Origin: Shigella phage ESh26
Sequence record: ON528736
Direction: 5' to 3' (one strand)
DNA: 64,000 nt
The notes beneath the pieces are model-generated. The model searched no databases and was not told the origin of the DNA. It saw only the letters and a list, made by a program, of their open reading frames with translations. Shown piece by piece: positions 6,027-61,778 of the stretch (positions are counted from its first letter, which is position 1; each line of letters starts with the position of its first letter). The position numbers and the translations under genes were made by a program.

Positions 6027-6311
6027 ACGGAATGAAATGAAAGCAGCAACTGAAGCAACTAAACTGTCTTCAATATAAACTTCAATTTTTACCGGAGCTT
6101 CTGACTCAAATTTACCTGTTACTACACCTTGGAAAATGCTTTCAGTCTGTTCTGGCTTTGAAAAATTTTCAGAAGGAAAAATTCCGAACTTTTTATCTGT
6201 TCCAAAAATTTTGATAAATTCATCATAAACTGCTTCATTAAAAGCGTTATCAGCAGGAATAACGCCTTCAACTACAAGTTCTTGACCTAAAAAGCGTAAA
6301 GAAGATTTCAT
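6021..6311 (-). CDS. Hypothetical early protein (96 aa) downstream of the alt paralogs
   Basis: ATG with GAGGA Shine-Dalgarno; preceded by an early-promoter cassette; acidic small protein. Confidence 0.5.
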   Translation of the reverse strand: MKSSLRFLGQELVVEGVIPADNAFNEAVYDEFIKIFGTDKKFGIFPSENFSKPEQTESIFQGVVTGKFESEAPVKIEVYIEDSLVASVAAFISFRK

Positions 6312-6339
6312 TTTGTGTTCCTCATGTTATGTCAGTAAG

Positions 6340-6375
6340 ATTATTATAACACAACACGAGGGACTTGTAAACTAC
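6340..6375 (-). promoter_or_regulatory. T4-type early promoter (-35 GTTTAC, 18-nt spacer, -10 TATAAT) within a duplicated leader cassette
   Basis: Reverse complement reads GTTTAC-N18-TATAAT; about 50 bp nearly identical to 21832-21892. Confidence 0.5.
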
Positions 6376-8429
6376 ATCTTGAACTTTTTAGACATTCCGT
6401 TGATGTTAACCAAAGAAGCCAAGATTTGAGAAACTTCGTTTTCCTCTTCTTTTGATTCTTCTACAAGGAATTGATTAAACCCAGCCATTGGACGAACTTC
6501 ACCAGTTTCCATTAGATGATCGCCATCATATACCGATTCTTCTAATTGTTCAGAAGGAGGAACGATTGTGCCTTCAATTAGATACTTGTTATAAGCAGTT
6601 TCTTTCATCATGTACGTGCTTACTTTATTAATCTTCAACAAAATTCCACGCGGTAGAATAACTTCAGCTTCTGATGGAAATCCCGATAAATGACCTGGAA
6701 CGATAACTTTGATTCGCTCAGCCCCTTTAATTACCATACCTACGCTAGTTTCAGCATCTTCATTCGCATAAGCAGAATGACTGCCCATATGCATTAAATC
6801 TTCAGCATCAACAGAACCTTCTCCTTCACCAGAAAATACTGCGCCGGAATCATCTAGAGCCATATAGTTTTTACCATGCTCACCGAAGATATTTGGTTTA
6901 AGCGATGTTGATACGAAGTTCTTGAAATAGAACATTTTATTTTCAATATTATGGCGTAAAGTTTTAAAAGTAACTTCTTGTCCACGATAAAGCGTAGTTC
7001 CTGGAGGAAGAACTGAACCTTTGGCAAAGGCAGAATCCAGCGTCTCGATGTGTTTAATAGCTCGTTCCATGTATTCTTCACGGGTAGAATCTGGTTTACC
7101 CAAGAGGAACGAGTTCATTTCAACATATGAATCTGCACAATAATCTTCAATTACATCAGACTCAGCTTGAGTCAGTCCTTTTGGAGTTACTTCGGTGCTT
7201 GCGTATTCATATGCCTGAGCAGCAGATTCATTAATCAATTTATAAATGCCATTCATGACAAATTGAATAATAGCTACCTTTTCGTCTGGTGTGGCTTTAG
7301 AACCTTTAACTAAATCATTGATAATTTTCTTAATAACATCAAAGCTATTAGAAATATTAATGTCAGCGAGATCGCTCAAAATTTTATCGGTTTTATAATC
7401 AAAAAATTCTTTATTCTTTAAATATTCTTGAGAACCTTGATGTGTTATATCGCTCTGCAGTCTGATAGACGGATCACGTAAACGCGCATGGGCCAATGCA
7501 ATATGATTTCGGAAGCTTTCTAGTTCATAATCGTTAGATTTAAAACGAGAAGCACTTCTCATACCACCGATAGCTCCTTTGCCGAAGTTTGAACCAATCT
7601 GAATAACACCAGAGTTCATTGGTCCTTCTGCTTTATATACCGGAACTTTAGATTCAAACTCTTGATATTTCTTGGCAGCGAAGCTATCACCCTGAAGCGA
7701 AGCATCGACAGTAGAATATTGAGCTTGTGCTGCCAATCGACGACTAATTTTAGTTTTCTGAATAACAGCTTGATCCGTGCGCTTATCATTTTCTAAAGCA
7801 ATAGAAGCAGCAACAGCAACAGCTTTAGGAACAGCATTACCTGTTTTAACATCTACATAAACATCACCAACCTTTGATTCAACTTTTGTGAATAACTCAG
7901 TTGAAATAGGAGGTACACCTGGAATGTCTTCTAAATTGGCATTTTTACGGTAAACCATAATATATGCATACTTTTTATCATAATCCCAGATTTCCTTTAA
8001 AAGAACATATCGACCTGCTCCTTTAGTACGTACTAAACGGTCAGCAATAACTTGCATTTGACGAGCTGCGCCATTTGTTTTACTTTTTAGTACGCGGAAT
8101 AAGCATGCATCAATTTTATACTGTTTCATTGTTTGAAGAGCAGTATCAAAAACGGCATTAATGACACCAATTGGATTTCCACCCAAGTTTTTAAGTTTAA
8201 CTAATGATAGTTTCTCATTAACACCTATCATTACGATATGCATCATTTTATCGCCTGGCTTAACGTTTTTATTTGTATCACCACCAGAGGTGTATGTACA
8301 AAATCTAAATCCAGGAAGCACACTTTCTTCGCCGGCTTGAATAGCAAAAATTTGAGGTATTTTATGCTTAGGATTTAAGTTAACAACCGGCGCCGAAGCG
8401 CCGTCAAATAATTCTGTAATAAGTTCCAT
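6372..8429 (-). CDS. Alt-like ADP-ribosyltransferase paralog (685 aa)
   Basis: N-terminal about 220 aa nearly identical to the adjacent Alt; C-terminal ART motifs YRGQ, FKNFVSTSL, EAEVILPRG; divergent centre. Confidence 0.8.
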   Translation of the reverse strand: MELITELFDGASAPVVNLNPKHKIPQIFAIQAGEESVLPGFRFCTYTSGGDTNKNVKPGDKMMHIVMIGVNEKLSLVKLKNLGGNPIGVINAVFDTALQTMKQYKIDACLFRVLKSKTNGAARQMQVIADRLVRTKGAGRYVLLKEIWDYDKKYAYIMVYRKNANLEDIPGVPPISTELFTKVESKVGDVYVDVKTGNAVPKAVAVAASIALENDKRTDQAVIQKTKISRRLAAQAQYSTVDASLQGDSFAAKKYQEFESKVPVYKAEGPMNSGVIQIGSNFGKGAIGGMRSASRFKSNDYELESFRNHIALAHARLRDPSIRLQSDITHQGSQEYLKNKEFFDYKTDKILSDLADINISNSFDVIKKIINDLVKGSKATPDEKVAIIQFVMNGIYKLINESAAQAYEYASTEVTPKGLTQAESDVIEDYCADSYVEMNSFLLGKPDSTREEYMERAIKHIETLDSAFAKGSVLPPGTTLYRGQEVTFKTLRHNIENKMFYFKNFVSTSLKPNIFGEHGKNYMALDDSGAVFSGEGEGSVDAEDLMHMGSHSAYANEDAETSVGMVIKGAERIKVIVPGHLSGFPSEAEVILPRGILLKINKVSTYMMKETAYNKYLIEGTIVPPSEQLEESVYDGDHLMETGEVRPMAGFNQFLVEESKEEENEVSQILASLVNINGMSKKFKM

Positions 8430-8432
8430 GAT

Positions 8433-10526
8433 TTATCCTTGAACGAACTTGTAAGGCATGTTTGTAATATCTATGCAAGACGCAATAATTCCAAGAGATG
8501 ATTCTACTTTTTGTTTAACATTTGATGAAACAAATGATGCAAAGTCAACTCTGTCTTCTATTTCAATATCACCTGTCATTGCAACTACTTCACCAGTTTC
8601 CATTAGACGGTCACCGTCATAAATTACTGATTCGGTGAGTTCTTCCGTAGTCATAACTTCAGCTTGAATGAGTTTTGTATTATTAGATGTTGTTCCGTCA
8701 TTATTAGAAGCATCAGTTATTTTATTAACTTTGACCATCAATCCGCGTGGTAGAATAACTTCAGCTTCTGTTGCTATTCCGAGACTTCCTGGATATACAA
8801 CATTAACTTTATGAGCTCCATCAATTGCCCATCCTATTTGAACTTTAACGTATTCAGGATTTTCTTTATACGCTCTTATTTCGTTTGGATTAATAGTTAT
8901 TCCTTCTTCATTTTTATCAACTGTTAATTCATTACGAGCTTCTGGTTCTAAAAGACCAATACCAGCATGTGTAATTCCAAAACGTCCAAAAATGATAGGA
9001 GTTAAAGAAGTAGATACAAAATTTCTGAAATAGAATACTTTATTTTTAACTAGTGCTTCGTATATAGGAGCAGTCATACTTTGAGCACGATAAACTGTAA
9101 TGCCTTCTGGTATACGGTCACCATTTTCAAAAGCTGAATCTAAGTTATTTATAGCAGATTCAATTTCTTTTTCACTCATTACATCATATCGTTCTGGATT
9201 GTAGCGTCCTAAAAGAAGATTATTGATGTCAGTATATCCTGAACCGCAATACTCTCTAATGCCGCGCTTTTGTGATGGAGTATATTTAGAACCATCACGG
9301 GCAATAGTAATATCAATCATTGGACCTGCACCAATTCCAGAAAAGCTATAAATCATTCGTTTGAGGAATTTAGTTTTTGCTGCGTTCCAGGAATTTTTAG
9401 TTATTTCTTCCCAGACTTCATCTGGCTGTCCTTTACGGGTTTTATTATGTTTATCAAGCCAATTATCTTTATATTCTTCAAAGAGTTGATTAACAGCTGC
9501 TGCGTATTTCTCCAAACATTTTATTGAAGTAGTTGGTTCATTTTTAATCGCATTAAGAATTACATCTTTAATCTTTTCAGAAACTTCATTAACCTCACTT
9601 TTTGAAAAGAATTTATAGTCATAATGAAGTTCATCTGCAGTTCCTTCAGCAATAATTTTTGCTGCCTTAGTTTTAGAAGCTAATGAATTAATTCCAAGCT
9701 TCATTTCTTCTGCTTCGGGAATTAAAGGAGCTGTAGCAGGTTTATTGAAATTAGCTGCGGTAGATTCATACTTCTGGAATAATTCACTTTCAAATCTAGA
9801 AGATTCCAATGACTGACTTTGCGCAATTGCTCTACGGGAAATTTTAACTTTAACGATTACAGCTTGATCAGAACGTTTATCGTTTTCTTGCGCAATAGAT
9901 GCTGCAATTGCCTCATTTTTAGTTACTTGAGCTCCGGTATCTTTATTGATATAAACATCACCGACCTTCGATTCAACTTTAGTAAAGAGCTCAGTACTAA
10001 TTTCCGGAACTCCTGGAATGTCTTCTAGTGATACATTTTTGCGATGTATAAGAATATATGCATACTTTTTATCGTAATCCCAGAGTTCCTTAAGAAGGAC
10101 GTATCTGCCACCTGAACGACTACGGATAAGTCTATCAGCAATAAGTTGAATTTGACGAGCTTGACCAGCAGTTTTAGACTTAAGAATACGGAGCATGCAG
10201 GCATCAATTTTATACTGACGCATTGTTTGCATTGCAACAGTAAAAACTGAATTGATGTAATTAATTGGGCTTGGACCGAGACCTTTTAATTTAGCAATTG
10301 AACCTTTAGCAGTTAATGTAAAAGGAACAATATGCATCATTTTATCGCCCATCTTTAAATCGCGATTAGTATCACCTCCAGATGTATAAGTACATAAACG
10401 AAAACCTGGTTGTTCAATTGCGTCATCAACATGAACTGAAAAAATTTGCGGTATTTTCTTCTTTGGATTTAAGTTTGTAATCGGAAGAGTAGTATCTTCG
10501 TCAAATAATTCTGTAATGAGTTCCAT
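8433..10526 (-). CDS. alt: RNA polymerase ADP-ribosyltransferase Alt (packaged, injected)
   Basis: About 697 aa; N-terminus MELITELFDEDTTLPITNL... and ART motifs YRAQ, FRNFVSTSL, ATEAEVILPRG as recalled for T4 Alt; located between 54 and 30. Confidence 0.85.
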   Translation of the reverse strand: MELITELFDEDTTLPITNLNPKKKIPQIFSVHVDDAIEQPGFRLCTYTSGGDTNRDLKMGDKMMHIVPFTLTAKGSIAKLKGLGPSPINYINSVFTVAMQTMRQYKIDACMLRILKSKTAGQARQIQLIADRLIRSRSGGRYVLLKELWDYDKKYAYILIHRKNVSLEDIPGVPEISTELFTKVESKVGDVYINKDTGAQVTKNEAIAASIAQENDKRSDQAVIVKVKISRRAIAQSQSLESSRFESELFQKYESTAANFNKPATAPLIPEAEEMKLGINSLASKTKAAKIIAEGTADELHYDYKFFSKSEVNEVSEKIKDVILNAIKNEPTTSIKCLEKYAAAVNQLFEEYKDNWLDKHNKTRKGQPDEVWEEITKNSWNAAKTKFLKRMIYSFSGIGAGPMIDITIARDGSKYTPSQKRGIREYCGSGYTDINNLLLGRYNPERYDVMSEKEIESAINNLDSAFENGDRIPEGITVYRAQSMTAPIYEALVKNKVFYFRNFVSTSLTPIIFGRFGITHAGIGLLEPEARNELTVDKNEEGITINPNEIRAYKENPEYVKVQIGWAIDGAHKVNVVYPGSLGIATEAEVILPRGLMVKVNKITDASNNDGTTSNNTKLIQAEVMTTEELTESVIYDGDRLMETGEVVAMTGDIEIEDRVDFASFVSSNVKQKVESSLGIIASCIDITNMPYKFVQG

Positions 10527-10578
10527 CATATCCTCTCTAGTGTTTATTCTATTTATAAAATTAAAGGCCCGAAGGCCT

Positions 10579-14287: not shown

Positions 14288-14328
14288 AGTATTTTCCTCA
14301 GTAAGGGGCCGAAGCCCCTCATTTTATT

Positions 14329-14694
14329 TTAAATATCAAATTCGTTAAGAACTACATCAAAGATTGCTTCAAGATGCTCAGGTTTAGCTCTGTTACTCAG
14401 AATATGACGAATCCAAGTTTTAACCAGAAGCTTGCGATTAACGCCATTCCAACAAGGATGAGTCCCTAAATCGCGTTGACGAAAATCATCATCCAAAGCG
14501 ATTTTGAAGTTGGAACCTTCCATTGTGATTGAAACCGTGATGCCATTTTCAAATCGCATATAAACGTAGTTAGGAGTCATATACTGTTCAATTTCGCATA
14601 CTGATCCATTTTGATGTTTCCAAAGGCAAATAGTATCAATAGAACCTGCAATACCGTTAGAAACATATTTACGTTCAAAGTTGATGTAGTTCAT
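14329..14694 (-). CDS. Hypothetical protein (121 aa)
   Basis: ATG start downstream of an early promoter/stem-loop cassette. Confidence 0.55.
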   Translation of the reverse strand: MNYINFERKYVSNGIAGSIDTICLWKHQNGSVCEIEQYMTPNYVYMRFENGITVSITMEGSNFKIALDDDFRQRDLGTHPCWNGVNRKLLVKTWIRHILSNRAKPEHLEAIFDVVLNEFDI

Positions 14695-14720
14695 TTTTAT
14701 TCTCCGAGATGTTTAATTGC

Positions 14721-14760
14721 GGTACAGGTATATAATATCATATCCTGTACCAAAGTAAAC
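14721..14760 (-). promoter_or_regulatory. Early promoter embedded in an inverted repeat (PeSL-like cassette)
   Basis: 8-bp inverted repeat ggtacagg/cctgtacc flanks the -10; -35 GTTTAC at about 14755-14760. Confidence 0.5.
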
Positions 14761-14762
14761 AA

Positions 14763-15095
14763 TTATTTTACTACTTTCCAATGCTTCATGTCAAGTTTAC
14801 CAACTTTTTTCATCTTCTCAATTAAGCGTTCTGCACGTTGGCGAGATGTAACATAATGCCATTCACCTAATTCATTTTGTTCAATTTTTCCAACGATTAC
14901 CGTATTCAATTCATAAATCCAACCAGTAAAGAAATTATGAACTTGAATTGTAAAGGTGAAATCTGTTCCCATACCTTCTGTTGTTTCTACTTCAATAACA
15001 TCACCTTCAACTGCCATTAAGAACCACATAGTTTCATCATATTTACCATTGAAGCATTTAGTTTTAACTGTAGCGTTCAGATTAATCGTTTTCAT
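14763..15095 (-). CDS. Hypothetical protein (110 aa)
   Basis: ATG start downstream of an early promoter. Confidence 0.55.
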   Translation of the reverse strand: MKTINLNATVKTKCFNGKYDETMWFLMAVEGDVIEVETTEGMGTDFTFTIQVHNFFTGWIYELNTVIVGKIEQNELGEWHYVTSRQRAERLIEKMKKVGKLDMKHWKVVK

Positions 15096-15122
15096 TTTAT
15101 TCTCCTTTGTTTGTGTAAGATA

Positions 15123-15152
15123 ATACTATCACAAAGGAACCATACTGTAAAC
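15123..15152 (-). promoter_or_regulatory. Early promoter (GTTTAC-N18-TAGTAT) with flanking inverted repeat cctttgt/acaaagg
   Basis: Read on the reverse complement; same architecture as the other cassettes. Confidence 0.5.
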
Positions 15153-15205
15153 AACTTTGTGCAATCTTTGGAAAATAAAAAAGGACTCCCGAAGGAGTCC
15201 TCAAC

Positions 15206-17751: not shown

Positions 17752-17984
17752 AGTACGCCATACACCCTTTGTGCTTCAACTAATCCATCAAAATCCAATT
17801 TAAGATGTGTTATTTGGTCACCATCGCCTGGATTCACAATTACTAATACTGAACGAGGAGTTTCGGTAATAACACGAACCGATGTTTCAGGAAATCGTTC
17901 AGAAACCTTATTTACCAATTCCTGAGCAAATAGTTTAACTTTTTCTTGGAATTCTTTAACAGTAATTGGTTTTTCACTTAGCAT
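17748..17984 (-). CDS. Hypothetical protein (78 aa)
   Basis: ORF, overlapping start/stop with neighbours. Confidence 0.5.
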   Translation of the reverse strand: MLSEKPITVKEFQEKVKLFAQELVNKVSERFPETSVRVITETPRSVLVIVNPGDGDQITHLKLDFDGLVEAQRVYGVL

Positions 17985-18505
17985 GTTGATCCCAGCTCCT
18001 TACTTTCAACGTTTTTAACTAATTTGACAGAAACTAATTCGGCATCTTGGGTAATCATTACCGGGCCTTCTTTATACTCTTCAAGATATTCTAGAGCTTT
18101 CTTTTTAGCTTCTTCCTTCGTATCAGTTTGAGCATAGATATAAAACATGCAACCAGTAATACCTACTACTTTCCACTTAATTTCTTTATCAGTTTTAATT
18201 TCAAATTTACTGACAGAATCATCTTTTTGAACTTCTTCGAAAAAAGAATATTCTAACATATAAGCAATTGAAAATAACGGGCTAACTTTATAGGATTCGC
18301 CCATTACATCAACAGCTTTATACCAGCAATCGTCAATTTCGCGTTTAATGCTAATAACATTTTTCGCAGGATCTATTTTTACTTTAAATGAATTTTCCCC
18401 AATAAATTGAGCAATTCGTTTATTAGCCCCGCAGGTTTCATTAAAAATATCTTTATATCCAGCTTTAAAGCGATAAACCTTATCTTCTTCAAACCATTCG
18501 CTCAT
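17978..18505 (-). CDS. Hypothetical protein (175 aa)
   Basis: ATG start downstream of an early promoter cassette. Confidence 0.55.
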   Translation of the reverse strand: MSEWFEEDKVYRFKAGYKDIFNETCGANKRIAQFIGENSFKVKIDPAKNVISIKREIDDCWYKAVDVMGESYKVSPLFSIAYMLEYSFFEEVQKDDSVSKFEIKTDKEIKWKVVGITGCMFYIYAQTDTKEEAKKKALEYLEEYKEGPVMITQDAELVSVKLVKNVESKELGSTC

Positions 18506-18527
18506 TTCAATTTCCTCATTTGTTTTG

Positions 18528-18565
18528 GTAGAGCTATAATATCACAACTCTACCGTAAAGTAAAC
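18528..18565 (-). promoter_or_regulatory. Early promoter (GTTTAC-N18-TATTAT) flanked by inverted repeat ggtagag/ctctacc
   Basis: Read on the reverse complement. Confidence 0.5.
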
Positions 18566-19046: not shown

Positions 19047-20457
<1,411 letters not shown>

Positions 20458-20461
<4 letters not shown>

Positions 20462-21334: not shown

Positions 21335-21831
21335 AAAGTTTTAATAACCTCTATAATATCGTCTTGAGAAAGACCGTTAATTAAAATATGATGTTCAGCA
21401 GGAGATTTAGAAATTTTAAAGCATGCCTCAACATCTTCTGCCATATCCGATGCACTACGATTTGGATTACTAATTCCAAGACGATGTTTTCCCGTTAAAG
21501 GATTAACGATTATATAGCATTTACAGTTGTTAATATGAACATTAGGTTGAGTCTGATTAATGAATACATCACAATCATATTTCGCAAGCTGATTTTCTAA
21601 AAAGACTTTCATCTCCTCAACCGCATCAGGAAGCATATCACGGGCTTGCTCAAGACGACGATTTCGATATTCTTTAATGGTCGTTTTCCGCTTGACTTGT
21701 TTAGCTAAATCTTTCTTAAGATCGGTGATATATCCAACTCGACGATTTCCTTTAAATACAGAAATCCCATCTGTAGTATCACCGTATGCTTCAACGACCA
21801 TCTCAGTAGTAATAAGCTGCAAATCCATCAT
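21325..21831 (-). CDS. alc: Alc, inhibitor of host transcription
   Basis: About 167 aa; position between rnlA and pseT cluster as in T4. Confidence 0.8.
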   Translation of the reverse strand: MMDLQLITTEMVVEAYGDTTDGISVFKGNRRVGYITDLKKDLAKQVKRKTTIKEYRNRRLEQARDMLPDAVEEMKVFLENQLAKYDCDVFINQTQPNVHINNCKCYIIVNPLTGKHRLGISNPNRSASDMAEDVEACFKISKSPAEHHILINGLSQDDIIEVIKTLCN

Positions 21832-21857
21832 AAAGTCCTCATGTTATGTCAGTAAGA

Positions 21858-21892
21858 CTACTATAACACAACACGAGGGACTTGTAAACAGC
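21858..21892 (-). promoter_or_regulatory. Early promoter (GTTTAC-N18-TATAGT), second copy of the duplicated leader cassette
   Basis: About 50 bp nearly identical to 6312-6371 including the Shine-Dalgarno region. Confidence 0.5.
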
Positions 21893-23507: not shown

Positions 23508-24677
23508 TTAAAAATATTTTTTAAAACTCATCATAACTTTATCATCAACATCATTATCAATCTGTGCTACAAGGTAAGATGACAGTTCTACTTCTTGTGG
23601 CGCGGATTGAACATTATCAGAATTAAGATATTCACGAATCCAAGGATACGGGTGTTTAACCGGAGCATCGGTAATTGGGCATGGAAGACCGCACTGTTTC
23701 ATACGAGATACAGTTAAGTAATCAATAAAGCTCCACATGCTATTTGTATTTAATCCAGGAACATCGCCATCTTTAAATAAATGAACTGCCCAGTCTTTTT
23801 CTTGGCGGTTGACTTCCATAAAAATATCAACTGCTTCTTGTTCACACTCTTGGGCGATTTTAACCCATTCATCACCATCAGTGCCAAGTTGAAGTTGACG
23901 AATAATATATTGGGTACCTTTAAGGTGAAGCTGTTCATCACGAGCAATGAACTTCATAATCTTGGCATTACCTTCCATGATTTCCATGTTTTTATGGAAG
24001 TTAAAGGTACATGCGAAAGATACATAAAAACGAATAGCTTCCAATGCGTTGATTACATGAAGGCAAAGATAAAGAGATTTCATTAGTGCCCGTTTAGTAT
24101 ATTCAACAACTTTGCCTAGCTCTTCTTTATGAAATCCTTCTGATAAAATTCCTTCATAATCTTCAACCGCATTCTGATATTCACGAGTCTTAACTAGAAC
24201 ATCATCGTAATAGCGACCAATGGACTCGGCACGTTTCATAATAGCTTTATCTAATACAATCTCATCAAATACCTTTGATGGATCAGTATAAAGATTTCGC
24301 ATGATATGAGTGTATGAACGACTGTGAATAGTTTCACTAAAAGTCCATGTAGCAACCCATGTATCAAGGCTTGGGTCTGAAATTAACGACATAAGTACAG
24401 CAGACGGTGCACGGCCCTGAATGCTATCTAAAAGTGATTGATACTTCAGGTTATTAGTAAAAATATCTTGCTGATACTGAGGAAGCTTGTTAAATTGTGC
24501 AGCATCCATCATTAAGTTTACTTCTTCAGGACGCCAGAAAAATGACAACTGCTTTTCGGTTAAATCTTCAAAAACTTTATGACGTTGAATATCATAACGC
24601 GCAATACCAAGACCTGAACCGAAGAACATGGGTTCTTTTAAAACATCAACTGGATTTGTATTAAAAACTGTGCTCAT
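23508..24677 (-). CDS. nrdB: Ribonucleotide reductase small subunit, uninterrupted
   Basis: 389 aa continuous ORF; no intron or I-TevIII-like ORF. Confidence 0.9.
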   Translation of the reverse strand: MSTVFNTNPVDVLKEPMFFGSGLGIARYDIQRHKVFEDLTEKQLSFFWRPEEVNLMMDAAQFNKLPQYQQDIFTNNLKYQSLLDSIQGRAPSAVLMSLISDPSLDTWVATWTFSETIHSRSYTHIMRNLYTDPSKVFDEIVLDKAIMKRAESIGRYYDDVLVKTREYQNAVEDYEGILSEGFHKEELGKVVEYTKRALMKSLYLCLHVINALEAIRFYVSFACTFNFHKNMEIMEGNAKIMKFIARDEQLHLKGTQYIIRQLQLGTDGDEWVKIAQECEQEAVDIFMEVNRQEKDWAVHLFKDGDVPGLNTNSMWSFIDYLTVSRMKQCGLPCPITDAPVKHPYPWIREYLNSDNVQSAPQEVELSSYLVAQIDNDVDDKVMMSFKKYF

Positions 24678-24728
24678 AAATTTTCCGCTTAGTTAATAGA
24701 TAGTGACTCGTCCGTGAGTCAAATTATA

Positions 24729-26993
24729 TCATAATTTACAGGATGAACAATCTTCAGCTTTTGGAGTTTCTATTTCATAATCATCAGTACCAGAACCGTC
24801 ACGGGTATTATGATAATAGAAATTTTTTCCGCCAAAATACCAAAAATATAAAAGGTCATCAATCATTATTGACATTGGAACCTTTCCTTTTGGAAAAATC
24901 TGCGGGTCATAATATGTATTCGCTGAAGCTGATTGACATACCCATTTTAGCATAATAGCTACCTGCGTAAGATAAGGTTTATTACCTTTCTTGGCTAATT
25001 TCCACGTATAATCATATAGGTCTATGTTATGCTCAATATTGGGCACGACTTGATTAAAGGAACCCTCTTTTGATTCTTTAACAGAGACTGGTCCACGTGG
25101 AGGCTCGATACCGTTTGTACTGTTAGAAACTTGGGAAGATGACTCACATGGCATAAGTGCTGATAATGTGCTATTACGGATGCCAAAGAGCTTAAGGTCT
25201 TCCCGCAGCGACGACCAGTCACAAACGTATTTTGGAGCTGCGATTTGGTCAATCTTTTTATTGTACCAGTCGATAGGTAATTCGCCTCGAGACCAACGAG
25301 TGTCTGAATAATATTCGCAAGGTCCTTTTTCTTTGGCGAGCTTAATGGATGCTTTAATGAGTCCATACTGTAATCTCTCAAATAGTTCATGTGTTAAATC
25401 GTTAGCATCTTCATAAGAAGCAAAATTACTTGCCAGCCAAGCTGCATAGTTAGTAACACCTACGCCAAGGTTTCGACGCTTTTTAGCTTTTTCTGCTTCA
25501 GGAACCGGATATCCTTGGTAATCTAAAAGATTATCAAGAGCACGAACTTGGACTTCTGCCAATTCATTAATTTTATCTTGGTCTTGCCAATCGAAGTTAT
25601 CTAGCACAAATGCAGATAACGTACACAATCCAATTTCAGCATCAGGACTATTCACATCATTTGTTGGAATAGCAATTTCACAGCACAAGTTGCTCTGACG
25701 AATAGGTGCCTTTTCACGAATAAATGGCGTATAGTTATTCGTATTATCAATGAACTGCACATAAATCCTTGCTGTTCCTGAGCGTTCAGTCATTAGCAAT
25801 TCAAACAGTTCACGGGCTTTAATACGCTTTTTACGAATATTAGGGTCTTTTTCTGCGGCTTCATATAATTCACGGAAACGGTCTTGGTCTTTAAAATAAG
25901 AATAATAAAGTTCGCCACCCATTTCATGCGGACTGAACAAAGTAATGTAGTCGTTCTTTCCAAAACGTTCCATCATTAGGTCATTCAGTTGAACGCCATA
26001 ATCCATATGACGAATACGGTTTTCTTCTACGCCTTTGTTATTTTTCAAAACGAGAAGATTTTCAACTTCCAAATGCCAAATAGGATAATAAGCAGTAGCA
26101 GCGCCGCCACGAATTCCACCCTGTGAGCATGATTTAACAGCAGTCTGAAAATGTTTCCAAAAAGGAATAACACCAGTATGACGTACTTCACCTGTGCCAA
26201 TCTTAGAACCTTCGGCACGAATCATACCAACGTTAATACCAATTCCAGCGCGTTTGGAGATATATTCAACAATTGAAGCGGAAGCCTTATTGATAGACTT
26301 CAGCGAATCACCTGCCTCAATAACAACGCATGAACTAAACTGCCGAGTTGGAGTACGGCAACCAGCCATAATAGGAGTTGGTAGTGAAATCTGTCGAGTA
26401 GATACCGCTTCATAAAAACGAATAACGTGTTTTAGTCTATCAACAGGTTCATCTTGATGCAATGCCATTCCAATAGTCATAAATGCAAACTGCGGAGTTT
26501 CATAAATTTGACCAGTGGTTTTATCTTTAACGAGATATTTTTCTTTTAATTGCATCGCCCCGGAATAAGTAAATTCCATATCCCGTTCGTGCTTAATTTT
26601 TGATTCTAAAAATGTAATTTCTTCTGCTGAATATTTTGACAACAATTCAGGGTCGTATTTACCTTCATTTACACAGTAAGAAATATGGTCAATAAATGAA
26701 CGTGGTTCATACTGTCCATAAACATGCTTACGAAGAGCGAACATTAAACAGCGTGCAGCTACATATTGATAATCAGGCTCTTCAACTGAAATAGAATTCG
26801 CAGCAGCCTTAATTACAATAGTTTGAATGTCATCAGTGGTCATTCCATCACGGAGATATGATTTAATATTTTCATATAATTCATAAGGATCTACAGATGT
26901 TCCTTCAGCTGCCCAAGATAAAACTTTAATAATTTTTTGCGGGTCAAAGCTCTGAGAAACACCACTACTTTTGATAACATTAATTAATTGCAT
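24729..26993 (-). CDS. nrdA: Ribonucleotide reductase large subunit
   Basis: 754 aa as in T4 NrdA; active-site region NLCCEI. Confidence 0.95.
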   Translation of the reverse strand: MQLINVIKSSGVSQSFDPQKIIKVLSWAAEGTSVDPYELYENIKSYLRDGMTTDDIQTIVIKAAANSISVEEPDYQYVAARCLMFALRKHVYGQYEPRSFIDHISYCVNEGKYDPELLSKYSAEEITFLESKIKHERDMEFTYSGAMQLKEKYLVKDKTTGQIYETPQFAFMTIGMALHQDEPVDRLKHVIRFYEAVSTRQISLPTPIMAGCRTPTRQFSSCVVIEAGDSLKSINKASASIVEYISKRAGIGINVGMIRAEGSKIGTGEVRHTGVIPFWKHFQTAVKSCSQGGIRGGAATAYYPIWHLEVENLLVLKNNKGVEENRIRHMDYGVQLNDLMMERFGKNDYITLFSPHEMGGELYYSYFKDQDRFRELYEAAEKDPNIRKKRIKARELFELLMTERSGTARIYVQFIDNTNNYTPFIREKAPIRQSNLCCEIAIPTNDVNSPDAEIGLCTLSAFVLDNFDWQDQDKINELAEVQVRALDNLLDYQGYPVPEAEKAKKRRNLGVGVTNYAAWLASNFASYEDANDLTHELFERLQYGLIKASIKLAKEKGPCEYYSDTRWSRGELPIDWYNKKIDQIAAPKYVCDWSSLREDLKLFGIRNSTLSALMPCESSSQVSNSTNGIEPPRGPVSVKESKEGSFNQVVPNIEHNIDLYDYTWKLAKKGNKPYLTQVAIMLKWVCQSASANTYYDPQIFPKGKVPMSIMIDDLLYFWYFGGKNFYYHNTRDGSGTDDYEIETPKAEDCSSCKL

Positions 26994-27310
26994 AAGTCCT
27001 CAACTTGAAAATCGTCTTTAAACAATCGGTTAACTATATGAGCTATTATATCACCATGACACGGCTTTGGTTTACATGTGCATCCTAGCCTCATTCCACG
27101 TAAAGGCTCTAAATGTGCTTTAGTTATTTCTCCGGATTTAATTCGACGTATAAAATCTTTTTTGAATAATTCAATGGCAGCCTCCCGGCTGCCAGCATCT
27201 TTACCGACGTAATTTCCCCAAAATGTACCACGGTGAATATTAACATCAAAGTCGGATTTATATTTATTCACTACCTGGCATAGACGGCCCGCGCGGTAAT
27301 AATTCGTCAT
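26984..27310 (-). CDS. Hypothetical protein (108 aa), cysteine-containing
   Basis: ORF between td and nrdA. Confidence 0.5.

Positions 27311-28410: not shown

Positions 28411-28411
<1 letters not shown>
27551..28411 (-). CDS. td: Thymidylate synthase, uninterrupted
   Basis: 286 aa from internal ATG (MKQYQ...); no intron; conserved LPPCH motif. Confidence 0.9.
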
Positions 28412-29443
<1,032 letters not shown>

Positions 29444-29454
29444 ATTATCTCCTA

Positions 29455-29787
29455 TTAAAAAGGATCAGGAACATATCCACTAGCTTTAATCATTTTAACT
29501 AATGTTACCATTCCTTTGTTAACTGCTTGTGAGATTTCATCAAAAACTTCATCATTAAAAAGTTCTAGCACACCCTTCTGAACTTTTAATTTACAGCCAA
29601 CAATTTCGTCATCGCCTATAGTAAATTCATTACCGCCAATTCCACCGAAAAACTTAATTACTCCAGTTAACTGTCTTCCACGAGAATATGGGTCATGTGA
29701 TAAAGTAATATGAGTCACCCCAGGTACAGTTTTAAATTGACAGCGAATGTTTACTTGAGAAATTCCAGTTACATGAATGTCAGACAT
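29455..29787 (-). CDS. Hypothetical protein (110 aa)
   Basis: ORF in the frd-32 variable cluster. Confidence 0.5.
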   Translation of the reverse strand: MSDIHVTGISQVNIRCQFKTVPGVTHITLSHDPYSRGRQLTGVIKFFGGIGGNEFTIGDDEIVGCKLKVQKGVLELFNDEVFDEISQAVNKGMVTLVKMIKASGYVPDPF

Positions 29788-29797: not shown

Positions 29798-30040
29798 TCA
29801 AACAGACTTTTTCACAGTTTTCCAATCAGCTTTAAACTGATCAACATCAGAATGGTAAATCCAGAATCCTGCGCTTTCTCCATCTTCATAAAGAGGACAT
29901 CCATCGCATTCATCTTCCCATCCCATATCACGCAAAAGATGTTCAGCTTTTTCAACAAGTTCAGAATCTTTACCGATGATATTAAAATACCATTTACCTC
30001 TAACTTCTGAATCTTTAATGCTCTGACGTTGTAATCTCAT
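29798..30040 (-). CDS. Hypothetical protein (80 aa)
   Basis: ATG start downstream of an early promoter. Confidence 0.5.
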   Translation of the reverse strand: MRLQRQSIKDSEVRGKWYFNIIGKDSELVEKAEHLLRDMGWEDECDGCPLYEDGESAGFWIYHSDVDQFKADWKTVKKSV

Positions 30041-30065
30041 TTTATTCTCCTTAGTTGATAGGGTA

Positions 30066-30095
30066 ATAGTATCACACTACTACCCTTTTGTAAAC
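30066..30095 (-). promoter_or_regulatory. Early promoter (GTTTAC-N18-TACTAT) with flanking inverted repeat agggta/taccct
   Basis: Read on the reverse complement. Confidence 0.5.
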
Positions 30096-30503: not shown

Positions 30504-30755
30504 TTATTGTTCAATCAATCCCATGTAAAATTCTGCGTCTTCAGAATCCATGCCGTCACAATACTCATTAGCCATAAAGCGGGTGAGGTCTTCAAGAGGA
30601 CCTTCAATGACAATAGAAAAATTGCAATAATTGGGATCATCGTGAATACTTGTGATACTAAGTTCAGAATAACGATTACGAATAATTTCTTCAATATATT
30701 CAAAATCAACGATGTCAATATCAACTTTAGCCATATTATTTTCCTCTTTAATCAT
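30504..30755 (-). CDS. Hypothetical acidic protein (83 aa)
   Basis: ORF downstream of a promoter cassette. Confidence 0.5.
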
Positions 30756-30764
30756 CAGCAGTAT

Positions 30765-30800
30765 TGCCGATAGTTGTATAGTACCATAAAGCTTTATGCT
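30765..30800 (-). promoter_or_regulatory. Early promoter (GTTTAC-N18-TACTAT), part of a three-copy conserved cassette
   Basis: Reverse complement ...ttttttcacaaaacggTTTACA...ggTACTATacaactatc. Confidence 0.5.
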
Positions 30801-30835
30801 TGTAAACCGTTTTGTGAAAAAATTTTTGAAATAAA

Positions 30836-31788: not shown

Positions 31789-31887
31789 TTTTATTTCCTT
31801 TTTAATTTAATTAACAGTTGGTGCTATGACGATGTATGACCTCATAGCTGGTCAGTGAGATAATTATAATATATTTATAATAAGCAA
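31789..31887 (-). promoter_or_regulatory. Gene 32 leader: A/U-rich translational operator region plus late promoter TATAAATA
   Basis: Reverse complement contains TATAAATA (about 31872-31879) and an unstructured A/U-rich run upstream of the gene 32 ATG. Confidence 0.5.
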
Positions 31888-47367: not shown

Positions 47368-48003
47368 TCACAGTTCAGATGCTACGGTGATTACTGCTTC
47401 AATGTTTTCTGCCGAGCGTTTAATGTCAAGATACACATTACCGTTTTTAGCGATTTTACATGACATTCCGATATCAGTAAATTTCTGAATATGGTGTTCC
47501 ATCATTTTGTATCCAAAAATTCGCATATTTCCATTGTTATTAATTTCAAAATTACGAATTCCGTGAGTGCGTTTTTCTAAAATAGCAAGATAGTTACTGC
47601 GGTAAGTTTCAACCTTTTTAAGAACAAATCCATTTTCATCTAAAAGTTTTAACATGAAGTCTTTATCTTCTTCCATATCGGAAGTAATCTCACGAGCTTT
47701 ACGAGTTGCTCGTTTTTTCAGCAGTTCAGGAGCATTTTCCTGCGCATATAAAGTTGCCGCATTTGAAATAATATCCTGAGCTTCACCAGTAATGATTAAT
47801 CCATCACCAGATTTTTCCACCAGGCCTTTTTTAATCAATACCCCAATATTACTATTAACTACTGCGTTACCTAAATCTGGATGCACCTCACGAACTTCTG
47901 CAGCTGTAATGAAATCTTTCTTAGCAATGGTAATTAAAATCGCAGCAGTTTTTTCATTCAGAACATCGTTAGAAGCTTTGATGATGTAAGTTACTTTAGA
48001 CAT
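47368..48003 (-). CDS. motA: Middle-transcription activator MotA
   Basis: 211 aa as in T4 MotA; ATG with GGAG Shine-Dalgarno downstream of an early promoter. Confidence 0.9.
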   Translation of the reverse strand: MSKVTYIIKASNDVLNEKTAAILITIAKKDFITAAEVREVHPDLGNAVVNSNIGVLIKKGLVEKSGDGLIITGEAQDIISNAATLYAQENAPELLKKRATRKAREITSDMEEDKDFMLKLLDENGFVLKKVETYRSNYLAILEKRTHGIRNFEINNNGNMRIFGYKMMEHHIQKFTDIGMSCKIAKNGNVYLDIKRSAENIEAVITVASEL

Positions 48004-48044
48004 TTTCTAATCTCCGTAATTCTGTATCAGTAGTTGATAGTTGT

Positions 48045-48074
48045 ATAGTACCACAGTATGCTTTGGTTGTAAAC
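48045..48074 (-). promoter_or_regulatory. Early promoter (GTTTAC-N18-TACTAT) upstream of motA
   Basis: Part of a conserved cassette repeated at about 30765 and 51845. Confidence 0.5.
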
Positions 48075-48106
48075 CGTTTTGTGAAAAAATTTTTGAAATA
48101 AAAAAA

Positions 48107-48130
48107 GGGAGAGCCGAGGCTCTCCCTAAA
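48107..48130 (-). terminator. Rho-independent terminator
   Basis: Hairpin gggagagcc-tcgg-ctctccc followed by a T-run on the minus strand. Confidence 0.55.
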
Positions 48131-49910: not shown

Positions 49911-49991
49911 TCACTGGCGTCCAAAGACGCCTTTTGTTTTAAGATTGTTACGATAGAACTGCATCACATGTTCGTTATGGAAATTACTCAT
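49911..49991 (-). CDS. stp: Stp peptide (26 aa), activator of the host PrrC anticodon nuclease
   Basis: Translation [26 protein letters not shown] matches T4 Stp as recalled. Confidence 0.75.
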
Positions 49992-51222: not shown

Positions 51223-51322
51223 AGTAAGCGTTTAATACATCAATCATTAAAACGATTGGGAATATACTCAAAACTATTAATATTATAACTACATTCCATA
51301 TAGCTTTAACAATCTTTTTCAT
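51209..51322 (-). CDS. Small membrane peptide (about 37 aa)
   Basis: Internal ATG with GGAGG Shine-Dalgarno; MKKIVKAIWNVVIILIVLSIFPIVLMIDVLNAYFGFM. Confidence 0.35.
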   Translation of the reverse strand: MKKIVKAIWNVVIILIVLSIFPIVLMIDVLNAYFGFM

Positions 51323-51350
51323 TTTCTGTTCCTCCGTAGTTGATAGGGTA

Positions 51351-51380
51351 ATAATACCACAGAGGAACAGTCTTGTAAAC
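51351..51380 (-). promoter_or_regulatory. Early promoter (GTTTAC-N18-TATTAT)
   Basis: Read on the reverse complement; upstream of the small membrane peptide. Confidence 0.45.
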
Positions 51381-51803: not shown

Positions 51804-51844
51804 TTTATTCTCCAAATCCGTATCAGTTGATAGTTGATAGTTGT

Positions 51845-56111: not shown

Positions 56112-56315
56112 TTAATTCATATTGCGTTTAATAACTTCAGCAACTTCTAGTAGTTCATCTTTAGTTGCAGTGTCAGATTGAATTTTATCTCTAATATCCT
56201 TAAAGCGGTTTTTAAACTCTTCGGCTTCTCCCATATCGAAAAAGCGTTGAATGATTCTATATTCTCGATGAACTGCTTTATCAAAAAGTTCTAAATTTAC
56301 TTTATATGATTTCAT
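56112..56315 (-). CDS. rIIA.1-like small protein (67 aa)
   Basis: ORF between 39 and rIIA. Confidence 0.6.
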
Positions 56316-56340
56316 TTCAATATCCTCATTTGCCCAATTA

Positions 56341-56370
56341 ATTATACCACATCCTTGTGGTAAAGTAAAC
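56341..56370 (-). promoter_or_regulatory. Early promoter (GTTTAC-N18-TATAAT)
   Basis: Reverse complement GTTTACtttaccacaaggatgtggTATAAT. Confidence 0.45.
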
Positions 56371-59722: not shown

Positions 59723-60004
59723 TTAATTGAACAGTGGAGCGATGCGTTTCAGAAGAGTAGCAGCACCTTTGGCGAATTTTACATCATGAAAAACAGTTTC
59801 TTCTTCCGTTACAACACGAGCTTTAATGTTTTCACAATCCCAATTTTTACGAACAATCTTCAAAAGCTGCAGTAAATCTTTACATTCAGCAATATCGATA
59901 ACACATCCACGAGAATCTTCCATTATCGCACGATAACCGTAAGCCATACCATAATCGTTGAAAGATTGTTCGATGATAATTAAGTTTTCCATTTTATTCT
60001 CCAA
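59723..60004 (-). CDS. Hypothetical protein (93 aa)
   Basis: ORF downstream of a stem-loop/promoter element. Confidence 0.5.
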   Translation of the reverse strand: MENKMENLIIIEQSFNDYGMAYGYRAIMEDSRGCVIDIAECKDLLQLLKIVRKNWDCENIKARVVTEEETVFHDVKFAKGAATLLKRIAPLFN

Positions 60005-60017
60005 GTTGTTTTCTGTA

Positions 60018-60059
60018 TCAGTAGTTGATATTGATATAGTACCATAATCAACTACTGAT
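60018..60059 (-). promoter_or_regulatory. 12-bp perfect inverted repeat enclosing a -10-like TACTAT (PeSL-like element)
   Basis: tcagtagttgat ... atcaactactga. Confidence 0.45.
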
Positions 60060-60089
60060 GTATATAGTTTTATGAAAAAATTTTAAACT

Positions 60090-60587
60090 TTATGCACAGC
60101 GAGCTTTGCTATAGTGTTTAATCCAACTTTCAGGAATGACTTTGTATGTTCCTAAAAATACCGCGTTGTACAACTTAACGCCATCTTCTACCCACTGATC
60201 GGTAATGTATGCACACATAGCGCGAGTACGATGTTTTTGAACAACACCTTCCTCATCTTCAGTAAATTCGAATTCATAAGGAGCAACGAACTTAATAGCT
60301 TGACCGAGTTTCCACTTAAAGTCTACGCCTACATGCGAAGTATCAATCGTTTCAATTCCTTTAGCAGGAACAGCTTTCAAAAACGCAGACTCAAGAAATT
60401 TCGCACGAACATAGCCAAACTGAGGTTTAGACTTTCCATCTTTAGGAATGATACGCACTTTTACTTCAGAATCTTCATCTTTAACACCGTGTTTAAGCTG
60501 AATGCTTACAATTTCAACCAATTTTCCTGCTGCTTTAGAGCGGGATTTATCAGATACACGAGCTAATTCACCAATATTAATAATCAT
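60090..60587 (-). CDS. motB: MotB-like protein (165 aa)
   Basis: Size and position consistent with T4 MotB (about 162 aa) upstream of dexA; downstream of an early promoter. Confidence 0.6.
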   Translation of the reverse strand: MIINIGELARVSDKSRSKAAGKLVEIVSIQLKHGVKDEDSEVKVRIIPKDGKSKPQFGYVRAKFLESAFLKAVPAKGIETIDTSHVGVDFKWKLGQAIKFVAPYEFEFTEDEEGVVQKHRTRAMCAYITDQWVEDGVKLYNAVFLGTYKVIPESWIKHYSKARCA

Positions 60588-60632
60588 AGTTATCTCTCAC
60601 TTGTTAAAAAGATTTTATACTCCACAGGACCA

Positions 60633-60662
60633 TTATACTCTGGTCCCAAGAGTTTGTAAACT
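60633..60662 (-). promoter_or_regulatory. Early promoter (GTTTAC-N18-TATAAT) with flanking ggacc/ggtcc inverted repeat
   Basis: Read on the reverse complement. Confidence 0.5.
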
Positions 60663-61208: not shown

Positions 61209-61721
61209 TTATCTCATTTCAATAAAATCTACAAGTTCAGCATGGGATTTGCGGAACATTACTTGGTGTCCGCCAATGATAACTTCATCTTCAGGAACTT
61301 CATAAATCGCAATGTACATTCCACGATCTTTTAAGTCTTCACGCTCTTCTCGGGTGAACCATCTCATCATATCATATTCATTAGCGAAAGCAAAATGATA
61401 TAATGAAATAAGCCACAATGGAATATAATTTTCAAATTGTGAATAATCTTTATTCCATTTAGTTTTAATAGCATCATTAGCATTTTCAACTAATAACTTA
61501 TCATCATGCGGAATAGGAATACTTTCATGGCTTTCATAATTATCGCTATGATGATGAAATGATGATGAATTAATACCACAAAATTTTAGCCAGGTTCGAG
61601 TTTTCATAGAATCAAATCCACGGTAAGGAGTTGATTGAACGCATAACTCTTGCCTAATTTTCACTATACCACTATCATCATTTAATGCGCTAAACGATGA
61701 TTCAACACGATAAATTTTCAT
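61209..61721 (-). CDS. Hypothetical protein (about 170 aa), His-rich segment
   Basis: Internal ATG with GAGGA Shine-Dalgarno; tracked ORF is over-extended through the promoter. Confidence 0.5.
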   Translation of the reverse strand: MKIYRVESSFSALNDDSGIVKIRQELCVQSTPYRGFDSMKTRTWLKFCGINSSSFHHHSDNYESHESIPIPHDDKLLVENANDAIKTKWNKDYSQFENYIPLWLISLYHFAFANEYDMMRWFTREEREDLKDRGMYIAIYEVPEDEVIIGGHQVMFRKSHAELVDFIEMR

Positions 61722-61748
61722 TTTATTATCCTCAGTAGCTATGGTGTT

Positions 61749-61778
61749 ATAATACCACAACTAACCGAGGAAGTAAAC
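61749..61778 (-). promoter_or_regulatory. Early promoter (GTTTAC-N18-TATTAT)
   Basis: Read on the reverse complement. Confidence 0.5.

Follow-up and report, generated by a model that had tools for sequence, protein, structure and literature searches.

Hairpin-embedded early promoters in Shigella phage ESh26 and other T4-like phages: a possible RNA element distinguishing read-through from promoter-proximal mRNA

A 64,000-nucleotide stretch of the genome of Shigella phage ESh26 (record ON528736), hereafter the window, contains ten early promoters in which the -10 element is enclosed by an inverted repeat. They belong to two designs of five sites each, named here by the minus-strand coordinate of the first base of the -35. 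In class I (61778, 51380, 21889, 6372 and 15152), an arm located just after the -35 is complementary to the Shine-Dalgarno (SD) sequence of the downstream gene. In class II (14760, 18565, 30095, 60661 and 60065), the arms stand in a fixed register about the -10 and the 3' arm would cover the start site. Sigma-70 promoters initiate about 7 nt past their -10. With the 5' arms located between -35 and -10, a promoter's own transcript should thus be unable to form the hairpin, and RNA coming from upstream alone could do so. On balance, it seems that these internal early promoters form an RNA element telling read-through from promoter-proximal mRNA.

The window belongs to a Tequatrovirus, and its gene order is collinear with that of T4 (GenBank AF158101). 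It spans baseplate gene 29, alt, 30, cd, pseT, alc, nrd, td, frd, 32 and rnh, then the tail-fibre genes 34-38, asiA, motA, 52, ndd, denB, rIIB, rIIA, 39 and motB up to dexA/dda, and the minus strand is the strand of its early genes. A 6-kb stretch round site 14760, the index site of the analysis, shows 97-98% identity to many Tequatrovirus genomes. A previous sequence-only reading had claimed T4-type early promoters made of GTTTAC, an 18-nt spacer and a -10 hexamer flanked by inverted repeats. A search for GTTTAC-N18-TAnnnT retrieved 15 matches on the minus strand and none on the plus strand, while shuffled sequences gave 0.95 +/- 1.04. When spacers of N17-N19 were allowed, 17 sites were obtained, 15 of them positioned 22-46 nt upstream of the start of an open reading frame (ORF). 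The sites display a GTTTAC/TTTACW -35, a 17-nt spacer (N18 after GTTTAC), a TGn-extended TAYWAT -10, A/T-rich upstream DNA and the orientation of the early strand, in agreement with the PST/T4 early-promoter consensus TTTACW-N17-TAYWAT (PMC4122927; the T4 consensus is also given in PMC2988021). In addition, the T4 GenBank record labels the orthologue of site 18565 'early promoter Pe133295'. The N18 spacer holds for the 15 motif matches but not for the index site, where it is N17 in the counting of that reading. Every repeat previously listed is present (15103-15110/15131-15138, 18527-18540/18541-18554, 30060-30070/30076-30086, 60627-60632/60641-60646 and 60017-60036/60040-60059). However, two sites near 51340 and 61745 that had been called weaker are among the strongest, with 15 and 17 predicted pairs and fold energies of -23.2 and -23.7 kcal/mol, and two more strong sites, 21889 and 6372, were absent from the list.

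At the index site, the minus strand reads GTTTAC (14760-14755), TTT, GGTACAGG (14751-14744), ATATGA, TATTAT (14737-14732), ATA and CCTGTACC (14728-14721). The repeat is a perfect one of 8 bp, and the -10 sits inside the 15-nt interval between the arms. The promoter is abutted by the stop codon of gp30.8 (14763-14765). Both arms were found unchanged across 14 T4-like loci although the rest of the leader diverges, and one variant converts a G-C pair into G.U.

Complementarity between the two halves of the promoters was compared with that of other promoters of the same kind, a null chosen in place of random AT-rich DNA. In this partner-swap control, the -35-plus-spacer segment of a promoter is paired with its own or with another promoter's segment downstream of the -10. 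The mean duplex energy was -13.0 kcal/mol with the own partner against -8.3 kcal/mol with swapped ones (standard deviation of permuted means 0.76), the mean longest Watson-Crick stem was 5.8 against 4.8, and none of 5000 permutations reached the observed duplex energy or stem length. In parallel, the segment from the -35 to the ATG was folded with RNAfold and compared with dinucleotide shuffles. Nine sites gave z-scores of -1.9 to -6.0; of six other GTTTAC promoters, five lay between -0.7 and +0.8 and the sixth, 30807, at -1.3. The repeats thus exceed what AT-rich DNA yields by chance, a point on which the sequence-only reading had staked its proposal.

The same holds beyond the window. About 200 T4-like phage loci were taken from IMG/VR round gp30.7, gp32, gp52 and dexA, and orthologous promoters were extracted from them. 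All loci were also surveyed for the pattern GT[TGA]TAC-N17/18-TAnnnT ahead of an SD and an ATG; 221 representatives were kept at no more than 80% similarity. Against the mismatched control, 24% of the surveyed sites passed the 5th percentile and 15% the 1st, and Watson-Crick stems of at least 9 bp were present in 11.8% of the sites against 0.56% in the control. The two designs were recovered among the 54 strong cases, since the 3' arm lay over the SD in 26 and started right after the -10 in 28.

Orthologous promoters of divergent T4-like phages keep the pairing while the arm sequences have changed. This was observed at 51380 (CATCTCCATTAG/CTAATGGAGATG in five divergent loci), 18565 (GGTAGGAC/GTCCTACC) and 60661, the motB promoter (GGGGCC/GGTCCC, GGGGTC/GACCCC or GAGAGCC/GGCTCTC). 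In the same way, the arms are TTCTCCTCATG/CATGAGGAGAA in five divergent loci at 61778, TCTCCTCATG/CATGAGGAGA in three divergent and presumably RB69-like loci at 21889, and GGGCTATAG/CTATAGCCC, GGGTTAT/ATAACCC or GGTGTAGAGG/CTTCTACACC at the frd.1 promoter. In the hairpin families, matched and cross-lineage energies were -19.4/-6.6, -20.7/-10.7, -15.2/-9.2, -11.3/-7.4 and -15.1/-9.4 kcal/mol (pooled Mann-Whitney test of matched against mismatched, p = 3e-23). The motA (25 orthologues), asiA, rnh and frd.3 promoters showed no such gap in any lineage, which makes the hairpin a stable property of particular promoters. RNAalifold applied to eight orthologues of the motB promoter returned 6 pairs, of which 2 had changed on both sides and none was broken. 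When run on a MAFFT alignment of the frd.1-promoter orthologues it gave no consensus structure; these stems are register-shifted between lineages, and per-sequence matched/mismatched tests were therefore used instead. These hairpins are also present in T4, at its coordinates 8218, 7215, 146143, 136336, 130310, 129918 and 123093, at about 133330 and, for the orthologue of 51380, at 166807. There is thus nothing peculiar to ESh26 in this respect, and experiments are feasible in the model phage.

The anti-SD of class I is CCTC or CTCC placed directly 3' of the -35, for example in GTTTACTTCCTCGG.../...CTGAGGA and GTTTACATCCTCATTTCG.../...CGAAATGAGGA. By geometry, the 5' strand of the helix would lie upstream of the start site, and the predicted cost of opening the region from SD to AUG falls to 0.2-4.7 kcal/mol in the promoter's own transcript (Table 1 gives both RNAs). 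At the other eleven promoters, the opening energies of the two RNAs are at most 3 kcal/mol apart. The SD is paired throughout at 51380, whose arms can also be given as CTGTTCCTC / GAGGAACAG, and the repeat at 15152 measures 8 bp.

Class II is defined by a register in which position i, counted from the G of GTTTAC, pairs with position 51-i. At least 9 of the 13 register pairs were formed in 17% of 180 unselected sites, whereas any other register reached 5.6% at most, and permuting the 3' halves among sequences gave the register pairing a z of 5.5. The register is fixed because the extended -10 consensus GTG.TA.TAT self-pairs through G.U round the axis, the stem then extending outward, and the arms share a loose core, GGTAG.../...CTACC. 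According to predicted opening energies the SD is free in both isoforms, and SD/AUG pairing was found at none of the five class II sites. At 18565, a 7-bp perfect core is lengthened to 11-12 bp by G.U and A-U pairs, and the promoter drives a 175-aa ORF that has no T4 counterpart, with an insertion boundary at its ATG. Site 60065, with arms at 60017-60036 and 60040-60059 and a 12-bp perfect core, also drives an ORF lacking a T4 counterpart, and the insertion boundary at 59985 adjoins the ATG. The -35 of 30095 overlaps the stop codon of frd.2. Of note, the T4 record holds at the orthologue of 18565 a misc_feature (14301-14314 of locus L001; T4 133300-133313) that reads 'inverted complement of previously reported sequence; corrects the early promoter Pe133295'. 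It spans exactly the 14-nt loop TTGTGATATTATAG between GGTAGAG and CTCTACC (window 18534-18547), so that a loop flanked by the repeat was once reported flipped. Either an error of sequencing or cloning or a genuine inversion variant could account for this.

The presence of a hairpin depends on what lies upstream. In the survey, strong hairpins were found at 35% of the promoters abutting an upstream ORF stop, at 11% of those following an intrinsic terminator and at 17% of the others (Mann-Whitney, abutting versus terminator p = 0.05, abutting versus others p = 0.002). Eight GTTTAC promoters of the window abut or overlap an upstream stop (61778, 60661, 56370, 30095, 21889, 18565, 14760 and 6372), and seven of them have a -10-enclosing hairpin, the eighth, 56370, having a hairpin confined to the spacer. 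Site 61778 is located 6 nt past the dexA stop codon and 6372 directly adjoins the stop of the alt-like gene 6372-8429. Among the four promoters preceded by a terminator or lacking an upstream gene in the same direction, 48074, 30807 and 34108 are without a -10-enclosing hairpin, and 15152 has only a moderate one (z -1.9). The upstream stop lies 0-8 nt before the -35, hence 7-16 nt before the 5' arm of class I. A terminating ribosome would therefore reach the first bases of this arm, which makes ribosome-coupled opening an alternative outcome.

These observations led to a proposed mechanism in which early sigma-70-type promoters inside transcription units would each be built into an RNA hairpin, with the 5' arm in the spacer and the 3' arm downstream of the -10. 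Transcripts starting about 7 nt past the -10 would be devoid of the 5' arm and only read-through RNA would fold, giving two mRNA isoforms of one gene with different fates. In class I, the promoter-proximal mRNA would be translated freely, and the read-through mRNA would be either translationally silent or translated if the ribosome ending at the abutting stop melts the stem. At 6372, alt.-3 would be kept silent on late alt mRNA, since a late-promoter motif is present at 10550-10557 and no minus-strand terminator was called by the terminator scan between 10557 and 6372; such an mRNA would carry alt.-3 with its SD paired. In class II, the compact hairpin would leave the SD free and its role can only be inferred, the likeliest ones being an attenuator or a barrier that would shield the upstream cistron's 3' end in read-through RNA. 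The attenuator is possible by analogy with a stem-loop of phage RB49 that lowered reporter expression. Two full-length alt-like genes stand in tandem upstream of 6372 (6372-8429 and 8433-10529, 685 and 698 aa), where T4 has one alt and the remnants alt.-1 and alt.-2, and T4 homology at 6372 breaks 19 nt upstream of the -35.

Table 1. Hairpin-bearing promoters, comparison sites and related features of the window. Energies are in kcal/mol; opening energies are predictions for the region from SD to AUG in read-through RNA and in the promoter's own transcript. PeSL, promoter early stem-loop.
Feature	Coordinates	Strand	Sequence elements	Fold energy	z	Opening, read-through	Opening, own transcript
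alt.-3 homologue early promoter, class I	6309..6372	-	CCTCGTGTT / AACATGAGG plus extensions	-21.4	-5.1	13.4	2.2
Late-promoter motif	10550..10557	-	TATAAATA; upstream of tandem alt-like genes				
gp30.7 homologue early promoter (index site), class II	14692..14760	-	-35 14755-14760; -10 14732-14737; SD GGAG; ATG 14692-14694	-19.4	-4.4		
gp30.8 homologue early promoter, class I (moderate)	15093..15152	-	5' arm TTCCTTTGT 15131-15139 in spacer; 3' arm ACAAAGGAG 15102-15110 over SD		-1.9	11.2	0.2
Intrinsic terminator, published T-even PeSL composite type	15181..15202	-	stem of 9 bp followed by TTTTTATTTT; immediately precedes promoter 15152				
Early promoter, T4 Pe133295 orthologue, class II	18503..18565	-	arms GGTAGAG 18548-18554 / CTCTACC 18527-18533; -10 18536-18541		-4.1		
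alc early promoter, class I	21829..21889	-	spacer AAGTCCCTCGTGTTGTG pairs with ...CATAACATGAGGACTT, SD GAGGA included	-24.4	-5.3	9.8	1.8
frd.1 homologue early promoter, class II	30038..30095	-	arms AGGGTA(GTAG) / (CTAT)TACCCT, about 30060-30086		-2.9		
frd.3 homologue early promoter (comparison site)	30729..30807	-	follows terminator-like hairpin and T-run; spacer palindrome only		-1.3		
motA early promoter with intrinsic terminator 48106-48127 (comparison site)	48001..48127	-	-35 48069-48074; no -10-enclosing hairpin		+0.3		
Early promoter before 37-codon ORF, ndd region, class I	51320..51380	-	CTGTTCCTC(TGTGG) with (CTAC)GGAGGAACAG, 15 pairs	-23.2	-5.7	17.3	1.4
rIIA.1 early promoter	56313..56370	-	spacer-confined hairpin ACCACAAGGATGTGGT, 'between -35 and -10' type; same motif at 51845-51874				
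Promoter-like site, class II-like, SD free	59990..60065	-	weak -35 ATATAC; -10 TACTAT; TCAGTAGTTGAT / ATCAACTACTGA	-20.2			
motB early promoter, class II	60585..60661	-	GGGACC 60641-60646 region / GGTCCT 60627-60632; outer pairs ACTCT/GGAGT	-22.1	-3.4		
motB.2 homologue early promoter, class I	61719..61778	-	TCCTCGGT.AGTTGTGGT with ACCATAGCTACTGAGGA, 17 pairs including SD	-23.7	-6.0	14.2	4.7

A comparable logic is known from the T4 genes e, soc, 49 and I-TevI, in which an SD-occluding helix has its 5' strand upstream of the start site of a proximal promoter, long transcripts being silent and proximal ones translated (PMC3014915, section 29). Class I is alike in that the SD and/or AUG is paired on the long transcript, with a predicted opening energy of 9.8-17.3 kcal/mol. 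In the published cases, however, the nested promoter is late (TATAAATA) and the silenced RNA is an early or middle read-through, whereas in class I it is of the early sigma-70 type, the 5' arm occupies the -35/-10 spacer and the silenced RNA would be an upstream early, middle or late read-through. Matches to TATAAATA are located away from the class I promoters, which are of the GTTTAC/TAnnnT early type, and the five class I genes are not on the published list. In translational coupling of the MS2 coat/replicase type, the downstream SD is paired and the hairpin is melted by the ribosome translating the upstream gene. Class I may be similar, as its SD is predicted to be paired and a terminating upstream ribosome could open the stem; it differs in that the promoter inside the structure would provide a second, coupling-free route to expression. 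The early-promoter hairpins are an extension of known T4 control and of published promoter early stem-loops (PeSLs), not a new system, since both PeSLs and promoter-nested SD occlusion have already been published. The T4 reviews, PeSL papers and full-text searches consulted yielded no mention of SD occlusion at early promoters, of the two designs, of the fixed register or of the influence of upstream context; older mentions may exist outside that scope.

Whether the repeats act as RNA or as DNA bears directly on this interpretation. In the window, predicted folds are more stable for the sense than for the antisense strand (-15.1 versus -11.5 kcal/mol, p = 0.005), and the difference persists with strand-symmetric site selection (-16.6 versus -15.0, p = 0.0014). 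In close orthologues, single substitutions at paired positions yielded a sense-strand G.U in 10 cases and an A.C in 1, while 5 kept or restored Watson-Crick pairing. As the class I arms are anti-SD/SD pairs, they are sensible in RNA only. Action at the RNA level is thus likely for class I and, with less certainty, probable for class II as well. Several points weigh against the proposed distinction between the two mRNAs. Sense-strand stability is partly a by-product of the promoter consensus, given that the class II register lets GTG.TA.TAT pair with itself by way of G.U. At non-consensus positions, the stems of this class showed no bias, with 16 G.U to 17 A.C mismatches, which leaves room for a DNA-level role of class II; a stricter ungapped scan left too few mismatches for counting. 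For these two reasons, sense-over-antisense stability was downgraded as proof of RNA-level selection. Moreover, no effect of class II on the SD is seen in the predicted opening energies, and the abutting-versus-terminator difference in hairpin frequency is borderline (p = 0.05). Finally, the apparent covariation may partly reflect replacement of whole cassettes, as the cassettes of 6372 and 21889 are 96% identical over 54 nt.

A first rival explanation, considered possible but clearly less probable, is the published view of PeSLs, in which the stem-loop attenuates or terminates upstream transcription and the cassette is a recombination substrate for swapping small genes. It partly overlaps with a distinction between read-through and promoter-proximal mRNA because both act on read-through RNA. 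PeSLs have been described in RB49/phi1, PST/T4 and nt-1/KVP40 as a strong early promoter preceded by AT-rich DNA and combined with a stem-loop and an SD/ATG in the space between two genes (PMC2839356, PMC4122927). In RB49/phi1, the promoter and stem-loop lie between stop codon and SD/ATG, the stems contain G-T pairs and the stem-loop mostly falls between -35 and -10 or overlaps the -10, and one RB49 stem-loop lowered reporter expression as much as rrnB T1 (PMC2839356). The anatomy of the cassettes of the window agrees with these subclasses. They do not agree with the T-even form, since T-even stem-loops are drawn 'just upstream' of the promoter (PMC4122927, Fig. 3 legend), often as AGNA-loop-TCNT, whereas the present hairpins enclose the -10. 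Their stems are not polyG/polyC, and half of them pair with the SD, a feature described in neither PMC2839356 nor PMC4122927. This spacer-SD pairing, which had gone unnoticed in the sequence-only reading, points to translation control on read-through mRNA. No U-tract follows the -10-enclosing hairpins of the window, whose 3' flanks are A-rich (CCAAAACAAA, GCAATTAAAC, ATCAACTAAGG and GTGGAGTATAAA), and none was called by the terminator scan; a reading as intrinsic terminators was consequently rejected on sequence. Genuine Rho-independent terminator-promoter composites, which likewise place a hairpin by a promoter in a short intergenic space, do occur at 15181-15202 and 48106-48127 and ahead of 30807; these are paralogous to one another and distinct from the -10-enclosing hairpins.

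The recombination part of the PeSL view finds some echo in the window, where, as with the published PeSLs, cassettes recur in one genome and some adjoin indels. Paralogous cassettes were identified at 6372/21889 (54 nt, 96%), 48074/30807 (44 nt, 98%) and 51874/48074 (59 nt, 91.5%), while most cassette pairs share just the hexamers and 15-22 nt, against about 100 bp of conservation in the PeSL definition. That definition further includes a preference for places where small ORFs are gained, lost or replaced among close relatives, and mini-circles arising from recombination of neighbouring cassettes. The first pair (6318-6372 and 21835-21889) is near-identical from the -35 through the hairpin to the SD, 15.5 kb apart and in front of the unrelated genes alt.-3 and alc. 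A TCTCCTCATG...CATGAGGAGA cassette is common to the alc and motB.2 promoters in divergent relatives that seem RB69-like, so that cassettes appear to have been copied or converted between sites. The sequence-only reading had suggested mobile cassettes bounding small variable genes and a comparison of gene-content breakpoints. Compared with T4, 5 of 15 insertions or deletions (indels) that do not stem from introns or homing endonucleases abut a promoter cassette (boundaries 6391, 18503, 30045-30054, 51801 and 59985), where 2.3-2.7 would be expected for random gene junctions. This enrichment is non-significant (p about 0.06-0.12), and the breakpoints lie mostly at the SD/ATG and not in the hairpin. 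They coincide with a repeated SD-ATG consensus (GGAGAATAAAATG); at frd.1, for instance, a 72-nt difference between T4 and the window is bounded by two copies of GGAGAA.A.AAAATG. The simpler reading is recombination in repeated translation-initiation consensus. Furthermore, recombination needs sequence repeats only and leaves promoter-specific arm complementarity and anti-SD arms unexplained. The PeSL concept is also sharpened, in that selection may act on an RNA effect of the stem-loop, recombination being a side effect of repeated cassettes.

It is rather improbable that the repeats are DNA-level elements, either an operator for a dimeric protein such as an early-promoter shut-off factor or a cruciform modulating promoter opening. 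The single register of class II with its loose common core and the lack of G.U bias noted above would suit such an element, and how early promoters are shut off is described as unknown (PMC2988021). Nevertheless, the arms vary widely from promoter to promoter (GGTACAGG, GGGACC, GGTGTAGAGG and TCAGTAGTTGAT), and their halves covary beyond column composition in the permutation already cited; such site-by-site covariation is expected from nucleic-acid pairing and not from a shared protein site, which is why an operator is disfavoured for class II. The 10:1 preference for sense-strand G.U and the anti-SD/SD nature of class I argue in the same direction. In addition, cruciforms are a substrate cut by T4 endonuclease VII. 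Least probable of all is a functionless by-product of promoter and leader consensus (TGTG/TATTAT, ATCC downstream of the -35 facing GGA of the SD, leaders of the CCTATCAAC type), of duplicated-cassette ancestry and of AT-rich DNA. Such an origin accounts for the self-pairing of the extended -10, for the (A/T)TCC found after the -35 in many promoters and for the paralogy of several cassettes. The partner-swap controls, however, preserve every consensus feature and are nonetheless exceeded, the arms change between genera without loss of pairing, and hairpin status is conserved per promoter family and depends on upstream context. The distinction between read-through and promoter-proximal mRNA is the favoured interpretation.

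Several other features of the window were observed. The spacer hairpin ACCACAAGGA(C)TGTGGT at 56341-56370 and 51845-51874, which uses the TGTGG of the extended -10, is also present at the alt.-3 promoter of divergent, probably RB69-like relatives. A leader motif, (A)CTATCAACTA(C), follows the -10 at 48074, 51874, 51380, 30095, 30807 and 60065, hairpin-less promoters included; it lies outside the sigma-70 consensus and could represent one of the 'additional regions of consensus' described for T4 early promoters. Good matches to the early pattern without a downstream ORF occur at 58386-58416 and, on the minus strand inside gene 34, at 34607-34636, the latter being expected to give RNA antisense to the 5' end of gene 34 and running on towards the rnh promoter. 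The initiation string GGAGAATAAAATG is identical at the SDs 14698-14710, 15096-15108, 30041-30053, 51804-51816 and 59993-60005. It matches the strong RegB cleavage consensus GGAGRAYARAA, and these sites are thus likely RegB targets.

Differences from T4 were also noted at gene junctions. Small ORFs absent from T4 were found at 17978-18505, 20141-20461, 28411-28617, 29198-29787, 49984-50157, 51597-51803, 52383-52712 (region), 58522-58893, 59723-59992 and 62935-63195. They are mostly inserted exactly at gene junctions, four of them directly downstream of the SD of an early promoter. Conversely, T4 has the promoter orthologous to 30095 with, between it and frd.1, a 22-codon hydrophobic ORF (MFAPYIMAAVMLVCLYLLIKAC; 27016-27084 of locus L001) that bears its own SD, is unannotated in the T4 record and is absent at window 30045-30054. 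The topoisomerase large-subunit gene is undivided (56370-58190, 606 aa), without the gene 60 bypass, 60.1 and mobA insert of T4. The window is also devoid of the nrdB and td introns, mobE/nrdB.1 and segG (24010, 24677-24733, 27862 and 31851-31887). No Rfam family was matched in a search over the whole window.

Although early gene expression in T4 has textbook status, it is still unexplained how early proteins are turned off when upstream transcription goes on, and what the 'additional regions of consensus' of its early promoters do (PMC2988021). Hairpins formed in read-through RNA only would let each internal early promoter separate its own mRNA from polycistronic mRNA. For the five class I genes of the window, the prediction is a read-through mRNA that is translationally silent or ribosome-coupled. 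On a bolder and more tentative reading, alt.-3, alc and motB.2 would be translated only from their own early-promoter transcripts or from ribosome-coupled read-through, and they would shut off with the early promoters despite continuing upstream transcription. About one quarter of internal early promoters would then be built in two stereotyped hairpin designs, one with an anti-SD after the -35 and the other in a register centred on the first base of the -10, the latter insulating against polymerases or RNA traversing a strong internal promoter. T4-like phages would, on this reading, possess a widespread and undescribed layer of control in which translation is set by the promoter from which an mRNA originates, with class II as a new type of insulator.

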